Shown here: positions 8,401-47,420 of the stretch, in pieces
Position numbering within the stretch: position 1 is the first letter of the stretch
Layout: each line of letters begins with the position of its first letter
Assembly: GCA_964016885.1 (NCBI GenBank)
Contig: OZ024740.1
Coordinates: 342,426,001-342,490,000 of the forward strand
From: Eledone cirrhosa
Taxonomy: Eukaryota
Length of the DNA: 64,000 bases
Direction of reading: 5' to 3'
Program-made: the position numbers and the translations under genes
Notes under the pieces: model-generated
What the model was told of the DNA's origin: nothing
Databases searched by the model: none
What the model saw: the letters and a program-made list of their open reading frames with translations, nothing else

Positions 8401-9764
8401 AAGTTTCCATATGTATATGAGTATCATGTGTTCATATGCATATGTATATCATTATAGTATGTGTCCATATATATATATATATATATATATATATGTGTGT
8501 ATCATTATGGCAGATATGTCTATATGTACATATATATATCTCATTGTGGTATATATATATATATATCCGTATGTAGAATATACCCGTATGTAAGCGGATG
8601 TAAAATGCTAATGATGATGATATATATATATATATATATATATATATACACACACACACATATATATATATATATACATATATATATATATAACTATGCA
8701 TCGAGTGCTCACTCGATTAACCATCACATCATTGAACCCTTTTAATGATTGGTCTTCTGTGACCTAGGGCTAAAGAACAACATATGTACATGCATACATA
8801 AGCACATGAATGCATAAAGACAGCTACACATAAGCAGAATGGTGAATGTGTAGAATGTTAAACTATTGGTTCATTGATGATGAGTTCAAACTATATAAGA
8901 TCTCCTGATCTTAACCCCACACTTTATCCCAATTTCAAATTTGTCAATCATTCTGTATATTATCTCCCCCTTTTTACCACAGTCCAGCATGTTTCACTTT
9001 GTAACCTCTCCTTCCTTTGCTCTTCACTATTTTCTCCTCTCTTATTCTTCACTATTTCTTTTTTGTTTGTCTCTTATTACCCCACCCTCTATCTATCTAT
9101 CTTTGTCTCATCGTCATCATCATCAGTTAACAGCCATTTTCCATGCTAGTATTATAAATATATATATATATATATATATATCACGATAAATTAACGGAGC
9201 CATAGACTCTCGTTATTCCCTGTCATTAATGTGCTCAAAGGAGAAGGAATCCTGAGCTCTTTATAATACAATATGTTGAAAAGGTAACACATGTTAGATA
9301 CATGTTAGATAGTTATCGAGGTATGTATTTACACTTTAATTTATACTTTTAATTATCGTGTGTCTACTCTGCCTTCCATGGGTTATAGATTCCATATACT
9401 GGTGGTTTTTCCCTGTTTTATTGATAGCGCACTATCTCTCTCTCTGGTGTGTTACCTTTTAAACATATTGTATTATATATATATATATAAATATGATTTA
9501 TGTTAGGTTGTTTACCAATGGGTAGAACTGGTAGTTCTGGTTGGTAAACGATGATGCAACAAATTAATGAAAGCACTCAATGTTATGCAAATCATCCATT
9601 GTAGAAGTGGTATCCAGTGTTTGGTTCAGGAACGGAGTAAAGTATTCATTAAAACAACAACAGAAGTTCAGATTGGAAAATTTACTTTAGAATTTTAATT
9701 CTATGAAATCACTATACATATTTCGATGGCCCAGTTCCATCATCTGATTATGATGCAAGACAGG

Positions 9765-10310
9765 TGTCATCTCATTTAATTTGACTTTTTCCCTAATTAA
9801 TTGTGCTAAAACTCTTTCTCTCACTTTCATAACTTGGTCCATTAGTTTTATTCCCCTGTAGTTACTCCTGTCTAGAGCATCACAATTAATGAGTATGCTG
9901 CTGCACCAGCCATTGAGTATGACTCTTTCCATGCAGGTGACTAGTTCAACTCCTACTTTCCTAGATGCTTTCAGCATCTCAGTGTCTATCTTTGATGGGC
10001 CAATGGCTTTACTATTTCGAATACACTTTTCCCCAATAAGACCCTGATTGACATTGACACACTGCTTTGTAATGCAGAACACCTCATATCTCTGATCCTT
10101 ACATCACAAGACATTGGCAAATCTCCCTCTTTCAGCCTCATTTTCCTACTAGGTACTGGTCTCTGCTGCCTCCCTTTTCCATGCCTGTTTCTTGGTTTTA
10201 ATGGCTCTATTCACTGTGGTGTTCCACCTCTATGTCATCCAATGTTTGGCTGCTGCTTTGTTCCAGCTACAAGTCTCATCAGTAGTTTGTAGTAGGTTGT
10301 CACATAGGAA
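9765..10310 (-). mobile_element. degraded RTE LINE fragment
   Basis: EMLKAS...DALDRSNYRGIKLMDQVMKV, the same motifs as 12831-15267. Confidence 0.8.
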
Positions 10311-10399
10311 CTTCCTATTGTTCCCTATGTCATATGTATTTGATAAAAACAATGTTTATTCAACGAACCATATTTATAGCAATTTCTGCTTTCTTTCAG

Positions 10400-10561
10400 A
10401 ATTCTGTCGACCTGGCACTTACTCCTCCAGTAAATTTTCTCCCTGTCAATCATGTGATCTTTCCACATACCAAGAGAACTACAATGCCACATCATGTAAC
10501 AAATGTCCTGGTCTTACACTCACCACTACACTTGGATCAAGTAGTCTCTCAGCCTGCAGTA
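10400..10561 (+). CDS. SVEP1: SVEP1-like exon, ephrin-receptor-like repeat 2
   Basis: tttcAG...GTaagt; FCRPGTYSSSKFSPCQSCDLSTYQENYNATSCNKCPG. Confidence 0.9.
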
Positions 10562-10671
10562 GTAAGTAACTTCTCTCACTTGATGCAATCTTTACAACTG
10601 TAAACCATATATAACTTTCACAAAAAAAAAAAAAAAAAAAACTGAAGAATAACAGTTGAATCATCATCATT

Positions 10672-10850
10672 GGCAGTATTGGTAGAGGATTGGACGCCAT
10701 GCTTTCCAGCATAGTTACGTCCCTTTACAATCTGAGTTCAAATCCCGTCGAGGTTGACTTTGCCTTTCATCCTTACGGGGTCAATAAAATAAAGTACCAG
10801 TAATGCACTGGGTAATTGCTGGCCTTGTGCCTAAAGTAGAAACAATTATC
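10672..10850 (+). mobile_element. second SINE family (gttcaaatcccg...gactttgcctttcatcc)
   Basis: B-box-like motif; copies at about 3650-3780(-), 42425-42545(-), 45960-46125(-), and two in tandem at 49278-49675(+). Confidence 0.75.
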
Positions 10851-44122: not shown

Positions 44123-44794
44123 ATTTGTTTTGCAAGGTTTTTGATATGAAATCGTGTGTTGAAACAAATATTGTTATACTTGGGGAGGGTCATATTGTTA
44201 TAATATTGCCAGAAATAATAACAGAACACATTCACTGTTTGGTTTGGGTTGGTTTTCACTTCTGTATCTTTTATATCTTCATAGTTAATTCATTTGGCCA
44301 TCAATGATTATCATTGACTGACCAACGGTCAAAAATACAGATATAAATACATATATATAGTCTAACAAAGTTCTTTCGTTGCACATCTGCAACATCATCA
44401 GTGGTACTATTATGTTTCCTCCTGTTGTATTGTATATCTACACCATTTTATTTTATAGAGATAAAATAAAATGGCGTAGACATACAATACAACAGGAGGA
44501 AACATAATAGTACCACTGATGATGTTGCAGATGTGCAACGAAAGAACTTTGTTAGACTATATATATGTATTTATATCTGTATTTTTGACCGTTGGTCAGT
44601 CAATGATAATCATTGATGGCCAAATGAATTAACTATGAAGATATAAAAGATACAGAAGTGAAAACCAACCCAAACCAAACAGTGAATGTGTTCTGTTATT
44701 ATTTCTGGCAATATTATAACAATATGACCCTCCCCAAGTATAACAATATTTGTTTCAACACACGATTTCATATCAAAAACCTTGCAAAACAAAT
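44123..44794. mobile_element. 672-bp near-perfect palindrome carrying two hammerheads (44512-44553 plus strand and its mirror)
   Basis: Arms of about 334 bp with a 4-nt spacer (agag); ca CTGATGA t gttgca gatg tgcaac GAAAG aa CTT tg; related to the 3' region of the PLE at 20072-21899. Confidence 0.9.
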
Positions 44795-45381
44795 ATATAT
44801 ATATGTATATATATAAAGAGAGAGGGGGCTCTTAGCACTAGGACCAATGAGAAAAAGAAGTGAAGAGAGAGTGGAGGAAGTCAATATGGGATAGTGGGAG
44901 GAAGTAAAATGTAGAAGAAAGGTAGTCTAAGTTGAGAAAAGAGTGATGGCTGAACAAGGAGGCAAATGGAGATGAATGGGAGGGGGAGCTAAAGACAAAA
45001 GGGACATTTACATGATAAAAAGGGGAATGTGCTGGCATGAGTGGCCAGAACAATGGATTAGTAAAATGAGAAAGGTTTGGTAAGCTCTCAGGAACTGGAA
45101 TGCTAGGAGTGGTACAAAGAATGAAGGGGGGTGGAAAGGGAAATAGTCTATGAGAGGTAGGAAGGTAGAAGTGCCAAGATGAAAACAGAACAATAACAGG
45201 TGCTGTATCTACAAGAATTGAAAGTATTTTCCTTTAGACAATCACACACACGCATACACAATCATCATCATCATCGTAGTGGTTTATTAGTTCTAATTTA
45301 TATATATATATAGAGAGGTAGAACACTGGAAGATAATATCCGTAGTGGTAGAGCACTCAGTCCATGGGACGAGTTAGGTAG

Positions 45382-45846
45382 AAGTGGTGACACAACAGTT
45401 AATTCACCATACCGAGAACAATTATTTCACCTTAGTAGATCCTCAGCTTGTGGACTATGAATTGATGAACGGATAAATATTCTAAAGAGATTACGCAATA
45501 GCGATTGCCTAAACTCAAGAAATGAATTCTTCACACATTGTCCACATGTTTGGAAACACCTCTTACATAACTACAAAGCTCTGGATTGAACAGCAACATC
45601 CTAATTTTCTTATCAACTAGAACCTTTTGGACTTTCGCAGTTATCTCCCTTACACTTCTCGCACGCAGTTTTGTATTGCCTGGGTGAAGTGACTGTTTCT
45701 GCGCATGCGCGTTCATGTTTCTGCGCATGCGCGTTCATACAGTTGTCCTTCCTGTTCCATATAACCATGTCCATTACGAGCTGAGGATCCGCTAAGGTGA
45801 AACAATTGTTCTCGGTATGGTGAACTAACTGTTGTGTCACCACTTA
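45382..45846 (+). mobile_element. small element with 70-bp inverted ends containing a hammerhead (45777-45814)
   Basis: cgag CTGAGGA t cc gctaa gg t GAAACAATTGTT ctcg; mirror copy at about 45413-45450. Confidence 0.75.
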
Positions 45847-46141
45847 TATATATATATATATATATATATATACTCAGATTAGTAATATTTGAAAAACTCA
45901 GATTACATTTATATATATATATATATATAAATGTAATCTGAGTTTTTAAAATATTAATAATTGTTTCTACTTTTGACACAAGGACAGCAATTACCCAGTG
46001 CATTACTGGTACTTTATTTTATTGACCCCGTAAGGATGAAAGGCAAAGTTAACTTCGCCGGGATTTAAACACAGACTGTAAAGGGGCGTAACTATGCTGG
46101 AAAGCATGGCGTCCGACCCTATTTGATTCGTTGTTATTATA

Positions 46142-46740
46142 TCTATATAAAGTTGTAGTTCCTGTCTGTTTGTTTGTTTGTTCACGAACTCCTCCTATAG
46201 TTTTGGAGATAGACCCCCATAACCATATATATTCTGAAACTACATTTCCCAGGGTACTTGGATAAGTATATTTCATTTTAATCAAAGGGTTCCCCAGGGG
46301 CACAAACCCCCACTGAAAATGTTTTCCCTTCGATTTATATGAAATTTAAACCATAGGTAAATGACAAGATATGATGCCTATTCATAAAATGTCAGCAAAT
46401 TTCAATAATATTAAGACGCTCTAATGGAGGTTAAACCCCCTATAGTGAAAATTTTGGAAGCCCATAACTTGAGTATTGGAACCTCTATTATCATGGGGTT
46501 TTTCTATTAATTAAATGTAAATCAACAAAAAAAAGCACCTCTCTTTTATAGTAAAATTTGGCTAATTTAGACATTTTATCTATGGCAAAACATCACTAGA
46601 ATTATGACAACAAAAATTATTAGTTAATGCCTCTACTTTTTTAACATTTTTGTTTTATTTTTTCTTCATAAATTATATCACTGATTTAAAATCAATCATC
46701 ATTTACAAAAAAAATGTGTGAAACGCAGCAAGGCGTGGGT
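46142..46740 (+). mobile_element. possible non-autonomous Helitron
   Basis: a|TCtatataaag start followed by (gttt)n; degraded GC hairpin acgcagcaaggcgtggg at the end; terminal CTAG missing. Confidence 0.45.
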
Positions 46741-47420
46741 AATATATATATATATATATTTATGTCTGAATTTCAGGCAAGCGTCTCATGTCGACATATC
46801 ATAAACATTATTATTAACTTCTGTCTGATGAAGACCTGATAGACTTATGTAATCTTTTTCTAACACCTCTGAAATGTGCACAACAGACTATATTTAATAA
46901 ACTAAAGTATGGAAATGTAGAACTGTCTGAGTGTATGGTGATGGTGGTGGTGGTGGTGTTTATTCAGTCAAAGCCTGAACATTTTACTACATATATATGT
47001 GCACATTGTGCTCTTACCATACATATGTCACTGCTACTATATAACATGGAATATGTAAACATTAGGGACACACAAAAAAATAATAACTTAAAGAATAAAA
47101 TGTGAAGATAACTGTGCATACAGATTTCAAAATCAAATTTTCTATTATATATCTGCATCATTATCATCATAATCATCATTATCATCACCACTGTTTAATG
47201 GCCATTTTCCACACCAGTATGGGTTAGACAGGTTGTCCTGTTATAAGACTATAAGACAAGTCAGATCGGATGGCCATGTCATGCTTGTATAGAACTGTTT
47301 CTGGATTGGTTATATATATATATTTATATTATATATATATATATATATAATATAAATATATATATATATATATATATATATATATATATATATATATATA
47401 TATATATATATATATATATA

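Follow-up and report, generated by a model that had tools for sequence, protein, structure and literature searches.

Predicted type I hammerhead ribozymes near the 3' ends of Penelope-like element families in a 64-kb stretch of the Eledone cirrhosa genome

Minimal type I hammerhead ribozymes are described in metazoan genomes as single and opposite-strand motifs derived from truncated Penelope-like elements (PLEs), some with a U3-A8 pair in the core; they need a dimer for activity and number 2,000 to 9,000 per genome (about 2,000 in Schistosoma and 9,000 in Xenopus) (Cervera and De la Pena 2014; PMC4209133), and published axolotl counts reach 120,000, all of these having been made with descriptors other than the one used here. 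PLE insertions are characterized by inverted copies, tails, and (TA)n targets, and the Hydra clade of PLEs includes Octopus, with a (TA)n preference given for Hydra-1_Obim of Octopus bimaculoides (Craig et al. 2021; PMC8557442 and its supplement). For a PLE of the anole, both-strand extension and two start sites have been published, the hammerhead requires protein to cut, and cleavage mutants did not impair insertion in vitro (PMC11167929), and a PLE origin of the small, hammerhead-bearing retrozymes is a published model (Cervera and de la Pena 2020, PMC7229834; preprint 10.64898/2026.07.22.740005, Li, Clavereau, and Pollet 2026). The window considered here is a stretch of 64,000 nucleotides from the 3.0-Gb assembly of the cephalopod Eledone cirrhosa (GCA_964016885.1, positions 342,426,001 to 342,490,000 of OZ024740.1, its largest contig). 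Very probably about eight PLE families are represented in it, with type I hammerheads close to their 3' ends and mostly as 5'-truncated, often folded back, and likely dead scraps, together with one unit lacking an open reading frame (ORF), at 39153-39797, that likely borrows the same enzymes. Most of the motifs are real, and they belong to a known system, represented here by new families (Table 1).

An earlier note on the window, made from its letters alone, had named about 10 hammerhead loci in several families, at coordinates that match the sequence, and had suggested descriptor and Rfam searches as checks. When every core position has to fit, the strict descriptor for type I matches three sites in the window (21636+, 20303-, and 43942+) and none in 40 of 40 block shuffles. 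Allowing one core mismatch gives one site (19818+) versus 0 to 2 per shuffle, which by itself is chance level; support for the other sites comes from family alignments. The strict descriptor misses families D and J because it caps stem III at 10 nt and also caps long loops; an initial descriptor without the additional base after A9 found a single site. At the family level, the conserved core and three stems are present in families A, B, D, E, F, G, and H, and also in J, and the several families of the earlier note are borne out. Copies in which the ten-position core is intact number 37 of 52 in family A (site 19729), 40 of 51 in E (43938), 24 of 28 in G (45777), 25 of 26 in F (44512), 20 of 23 in D (39028, with U3-A8), and 7 of 18 in H (46821), and families B (21632) and F are related by compensatory changes in stems I and II. 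At the family level, the D hammerhead combines U3-A8 with a stem III of 5 bp and a GUC site, and one copy from this family folds into a whole three-way junction (z -2.8); folding z-scores of single window copies are mostly weak (-2.5 to +0.8). Decay has gone further in the window copies of A, D, and H than in their families at large.

Of the 11 sites, 9 carry a type I hammerhead motif, either as such or in decayed form. Family C departs from the type I core at U4 and A6. The hammerhead-like motif at 40178, in which the register of stem I is off by one base, is uncertain, and site 9706 is unsupported: it has U4A, lacks stem I, lies in frame within a decayed RTE piece, and has no homolog among the fetched loci, with no genome-wide search made for it. 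A covariance model trained solely on 17 foreign PLE hammerheads, from metagenome relatives of family C, was run on the window and recovers 43936-43975 (E 1.5e-5) and both C copies (25848-25887 and 22113-22152, E 0.0023); B scores E 2 and H scores E 9, and D is reached through off-site matches only (E 4-5), ending near the core.

Eight of the sites belong to PLE families, with ORF pieces inside the window at three of them (21632, 25850, and 39028). The single ORF with reverse transcriptase (RT) and, at its C terminus, the GIY-YIG endonuclease is complete in C (879 aa, RVT_1 plus GIY-YIG), B retains GIY-YIG alone, and A, D, E, F, and G have broken PLE coding pieces, either in the window or in longer copies. 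Across the fetched copies of the families that are ORF-less in the window, the 3' end is fixed and the 5' ends are nested and variable. Same-strand PLE coding sequence lies upstream in 8 of 30 loci each for F and G and in 6 of 25 for E, where locus L345 has RT, hammerhead, and inverted copy in order. GIY-YIG remnants are present in 7 of 30 A loci, reached by three walking steps over about 2 kb of low-complexity 3' sequence, and in L319 such a remnant and a family A hammerhead occupy one locus; for H, 1 locus of 18 has an endonuclease remnant, some 1 kb upstream. Fixed 3' ends together with 5' ends nested into coding sequence argue that A, E, F, G, and probably H are truncated autonomous elements and not a separate mobilized family, and the ORF-less sites at 19729, 43938, 44512, and 45777 are best read as 5'-truncated PLE stubs, as is 46821 less firmly.

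The insertions have the architecture expected of PLEs, with partial tandems (pseudo-long-terminal repeats, or pLTRs), inverted 5'-truncated copies, and one-sided tails all present, and with the hammerhead in the 3' repeat, in variant form in C. A one-sided tail is the start of the next tandem unit. Over 169 loci in seven families, the partner is inverted 43 times and direct 4 times, and the mirrors are second copies in inverted orientation, as is usual for PLE insertions and unlike the tandems of retrozymes. The 3' end is at most 20 nt from (TA)3 in 67 of 115 loci, against a background of 6%, and most of the remaining loci reach (TA)n after a tail, in keeping with the insertion of PLE-type hammerheads into (TA)n put forward in the earlier note. 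The tails of A (19680-19728), D (35750-35825), and G (45312-45378) have a short motif in common, and the A tail terminates in a polypyrimidine-AG resembling a splice acceptor.

These features, namely 3' ends at (TA)n, nested 5' truncation, inverted second copies, and an empty (TA)n site for C, suggest how the insertions may have formed. By analogy with published PLEs (PMC11167929 and PMC8557442), the PLE protein would nick an AT-rich target and reverse-transcribe from the 3' end, extension from the opposite strand would likely produce the inverted mirror, two internal start sites could give ends with and without a tail, and early truncation of reverse transcription would yield stubs. We propose that the hammerhead persists in even the shortest scraps because reverse transcription that starts at the 3' end would copy it early.

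Family C is the youngest of the families, and its core is altered. On many contigs its copies agree at 99-100% identity; the tandem unit measures 3451 bp, and the 879-aa frame is open in three fetched tandem loci; its tail corresponds to the first part of its own ORF, as is visible at the tandem junction. A copy of the whole region, 99.3-99.9% identical and about 750 kb away on the same contig (about 341.68-341.73 Mb), which may be a duplication or an uncollapsed haplotype, has plain (TA)n where element C stands in the window, so family C moved recently. In the C motif the stems are full, a base is added after A9, G10.1 pairs with C11.1, and stem III is a palindrome, but C4 and U6 are present in 43 of 43 occurrences (overlapping, top-scoring loci), with no second, canonical core elsewhere in the unit. 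Scanning metagenomes with the C protein by itself brought up no relative; an alignment-based scan found PLE relatives of about 25-45% identity, with a hammerhead at the matching position. With the core unconstrained, the motif is found in 5 of 21 relative loci, with U4 and A6 kept in all 5, and a pattern demanding U4 and A6 finds 20 motifs in 27 relative loci. The alignment of 17 hammerheads consists of L361 and 16 of these 20, the other four being left out because their stem III was longer or their GAAA was broken; 93.5% of its cells are paired, and both sides vary in 8 of 9 pairs. The U4 and A6 of the relatives, together with the score of C under the foreign model, indicate that the C motif is a derived hammerhead.

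Elsewhere, U4C lowers activity yet is tolerated in a viroid, and A6C cuts at <0.1 per minute (PMC3088659). The ribozyme of C is likely weak or dead, given its derived core and the dispensability of cleavage for insertion in vitro, and family C likely moves with it in that state. No report of the U4C/A6U pair was found in the open literature searched, a search that did not extend to the hammerhead alignments in the supplements of PMC8557442 and PMC4209133. In contigs from an organism with a diverged family C (four runs, at most two samples, one study), a comparison over 341 bp shows 25 substitutions and 7 indels. All of them fall outside the hammerhead (25848-25887), but other parts of the stretch have gaps of 39-49 nt, so the unchanged state of the hammerhead is not evidence of selection. 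Four of the metagenome PLE relatives have an A3-U8 core pair (L361:2153-2193, L370:1235-1275, L350:2072-2113, and L375:1561-1600), a core covariant that is not named in the literature passages searched.

Family C is a natural experiment, being intact, recently mobile, and derived in its core: an active PLE would have lost the function in nature should its ribozyme fail to cut, and the hammerhead consensus would broaden should it cut. It is rather unlikely that this youngest, still-moving family, which breaks two all but invariant positions (U4 and A6) at once, nonetheless cuts, perhaps only with its own protein, which would be a new natural core in a genome with maybe about 200,000 hammerheads and ORF-less hitchhikers like J.

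The second unusual element is family J (site 39451), whose unit is preceded by a 97%-identical copy of its final 135 bp. Three more full units (L137, L165, and L470) are 54-64% alike and have a common 5' boundary, and five additional matches are 3' pieces, two of them fold-backs; the longest stop-free frame in the units is 46-73 codons. The core pair is C3-G8 in two units and U3-A8 in two, and the first three pairs of stem II hold in 11 of 12 cells with differing letters. J is likely a non-autonomous PLE-type element, judged by its sequence, hitchhiking on PLE enzymes. Its insertions hold 1.2-1.4 units with one hammerhead each, which leaves it short of the two consecutive units by which retrozymes are defined in the preprint. 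Such an array is present outside the window at L430:4934-6328, from a random genome sample, where an ORF-less unit of 467 bp lies within (TA)n as two direct hammerhead-bearing copies and one inverted copy that are 99% alike, and L430 is classed as a retrozyme-type element. With J and L430, the model of PLE-derived retrozymes would come to include a cephalopod.

That the ORF-less sites at large are dedicated hammerhead mini-elements or retrozymes, mobilized by PLEs and replicating as small circular RNAs, is quite improbable. The idea holds in form for J and L430, and most A and E copies are shorter than 400 bp, but nested 5' ends run into coding sequence, and the ORF-linked long copies largely refute it for A, E, F, and G. 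An ORF-less unit of defined length, a retrozyme trait, is seen in the window in J alone and not in A, E, F, or G, no window site has two consecutive direct hammerhead-bearing units, and direct partners are few. The earlier note's ORF-less mini-elements mobilized by PLEs are retained for the J unit and given up for A, E, F, G, and probably H.

Several observations weigh against reading the sites as PLE hammerheads. Rfam gave zero hammerhead matches in the window (E<=10) and zero in seven family loci (gathering score). The foreign-PLE covariance model missed most families, with A, F, G, and J unlisted. The genomic loci compared are top-scoring matches, not random copies. The frames that link A to an ORF are degraded (E 9e-12 to 6e-3), and the 7-kb stretch around L319 gave no ORF match when searched more strictly; the bridge from H to its ORF is not continuous, and family I has no ORF link in 18 loci. 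For J, the full units seen number four, stem I holds in two of them and fails in two, and no autonomous partner was found, nor was one found for L430.

The wider genome was represented by a background sample of 60 evenly spaced 10-kb stretches taken from eight large contigs only. The strict descriptor finds 40 matches in these 600 kb (17 of 60 stretches positive) versus 0 to 1 in each of 10 shuffles, corresponding to about 200,000 hammerheads in the genome (bootstrap 110,000-310,000) if the sample is representative, and this density suggests an unusually rich source of hammerhead variants. At least eight more hammerhead families, absent from the window, are represented in the sample (L424, L430, L431, L438, L439, L451, L453, L458, L461, and L463-L465). 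Chance matching in AT-rich DNA is a very improbable account of the motifs: one-mismatch matches at shuffle level and the nil Rfam support speak for it, and it is probably correct for 9706 and possibly for 40178, but it is refuted for all other sites by the excess of perfect-core matches over shuffles in window and sample and by covariation in the hammerhead stems.

Exons of the SVEP1-like gene in the window cover residues 633-1418 of a 1960-aa homolog, and one of them is 60% identical to a SVEP1-like protein labelled Octopus vulgaris, the protein by which the 11 exons were mapped. The placement of the loci inside one gene's introns, as earlier claimed, holds up to 43135; four sites 3' of that position come after a splice donor, but the window showed no later exon, and a search of the 50 kb that follow it, and of the 50 kb that follow the duplicate region, found satellite only. 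The window is not enriched in hammerheads, with 3 strict matches per 64 kb versus a genome mean of 4.3, so the cluster is not special to this gene. Mirrors on opposite strands mean that the pre-mRNA would carry one hammerhead plus its complement, which would likely form a long duplex and not an active dimer, and an effect of the insertions on the SVEP1-like gene is unlikely. It is scarcely credible that the hammerheads are kept in introns to cut or regulate this pre-mRNA, since, although eight motifs (nine including the doubtful 40178) have a gene-strand copy, their density is no higher than the genome mean, the window copies of A, D, and H are decayed beyond their families, and C is missing from the duplicate region.

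Table 1. Elements, hammerhead cores, and host gene in the window, numbered from its first letter
Feature	Positions	Strand	Details
Family A, fold-back stub of Hydra-type PLE	19680-19890		One-sided tail 19680-19728; cores 19818(+) and 19801(-), one core change each
Family B, truncated PLE	20072-21899	+	GIY-YIG fragment 20738-21409 and inverted copy, arms 86% alike; cores 21636(+) and 20303(-)
Family C, young PLE	21916-26040	+	5'-truncated RT plus GIY-YIG frame 23426-25240; inverted copy 21959-23449, 99.9% alike; tail 21916-21953
Family C hammerhead	25848-25887	+	Core starts 25854, U4C/A6U; identical mirror 22113-22152(-)
Family D, broken Hydra-type PLE	35750-39140	+	ORF pieces 36230-38214; inverted copy 35826-36262; cores 39033(+) and 35934(-), stem III decayed in both
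Family J, ORF-less unit of ~514 bp	39153-39797	-	~1.26 head-to-tail copies between (TA)n tracts; core 39508, GAAA 39465, long loop II
Family I, old fold-back repeat	40013-40302		Hammerhead-like motif at 40178(+) and 40118(-)
Family E, single stub	43846-44052	+	Textbook minimal hammerhead, core 43942
Family F, fold-back stub, sister family of B	44113-44794		334-bp arms; cores 44516(+) and 44401(-)
Family G, Hydra-type stub	45312-45845	+	Short inverted copy and tail; cores 45781(+) and 45446(-)
Family H, old stub, probably Hydra-type	46790-46930	+	Window copy without U16.1
SVEP1-like host gene	2111-43135	+	11 exons mapped: HYR, ephrin-receptor-like, EGF, pentraxin

The introns of the host gene are packed with RTE pieces, microsatellites, and fold-back repeats. 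Three RTE-type copies of long interspersed nuclear elements (12418-15413, 28138-31642, and 33210-35705) have a PHD-like segment 3' of the RT, and 12831-15413 is an open frame of 860 codons. Small palindromic repeats without a recognized hammerhead lie at 11566-11705, 7782-7972, 16286-16392, and 45878-45961, several with homologs among the fetched loci, and a fold-back repeat at 47417-48357 has 300-bp arms, 98% alike, and diverged homologs, with no hammerhead core or ORF noticed. A 40-bp satellite occupies 53668-64000 and continues for at least 60 kb past the last mapped exon (50 kb were fetched beyond the window end), and the duplicate region is likewise trailed by satellite. Besides lacking element C, the duplicate region has additional pieces of about 0.5 kb and 5.5 kb near window positions 11705 and 47350-47386.

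Comparison with the described systems places these hammerheads closest to the minimal hammerheads of metazoan PLEs (PMC4209133), with which they have in common the type I topology, a short stem I, an unpaired base between 9 and 10.1, a short palindromic stem III, many families per genome, single motifs as well as opposite-strand pairs, and the U3-A8 variant. They differ in the U4C plus A6U of C, in the pyrimidine mismatch that closes stem II in A, G, and H, in the full stem III of D, and in the estimated number, 1.1-3.1 x 10^5 here and far above 2,000-9,000, with descriptors that differ between the two studies. For octopus hammerheads, PMC8557442 was the sole relevant paper to surface in the literature searched. 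The Hydra clade PLEs described there are matched by the CxCX5C linker in A and G, the lack of CCHH cysteines in A, D, and G, the DKT in D only, the (TA)n targets, and the presence of hammerheads; this putative assignment is by motif for A, D, and G, the D linker being degenerate, and by similarity to D and G for H. Family A differs from that clade in its 3' untranslated part of about 2 kb, and C (DKG and CCHH) and B (CX4CxxC linker) fall outside it.

Non-LTR retrozymes (PMC7229834; 10.64898/2026.07.22.740005) resemble J and L430, whose head-to-tail units of 470-560 bp lack an ORF and carry a type I hammerhead, and J differs from those of the preprint in its incomplete second unit, its one hammerhead, and its long, variable loop II; the predominance of inverted over direct partners among the window's families is the opposite of retrozymes. 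Chlamys elements such as MRC1 (PMC8557442) also form ORF-less units in pLTR-like partial tandems, as J does, but they are without canonical hammerheads and have a partner recognizable at the 3' end, and no such partner turned up for J. Minimal hammerheads at PLE ends are known as a system, and the families described here have their value as test material, bearing on whether PLEs keep hammerheads as a processing aid or as a passenger.

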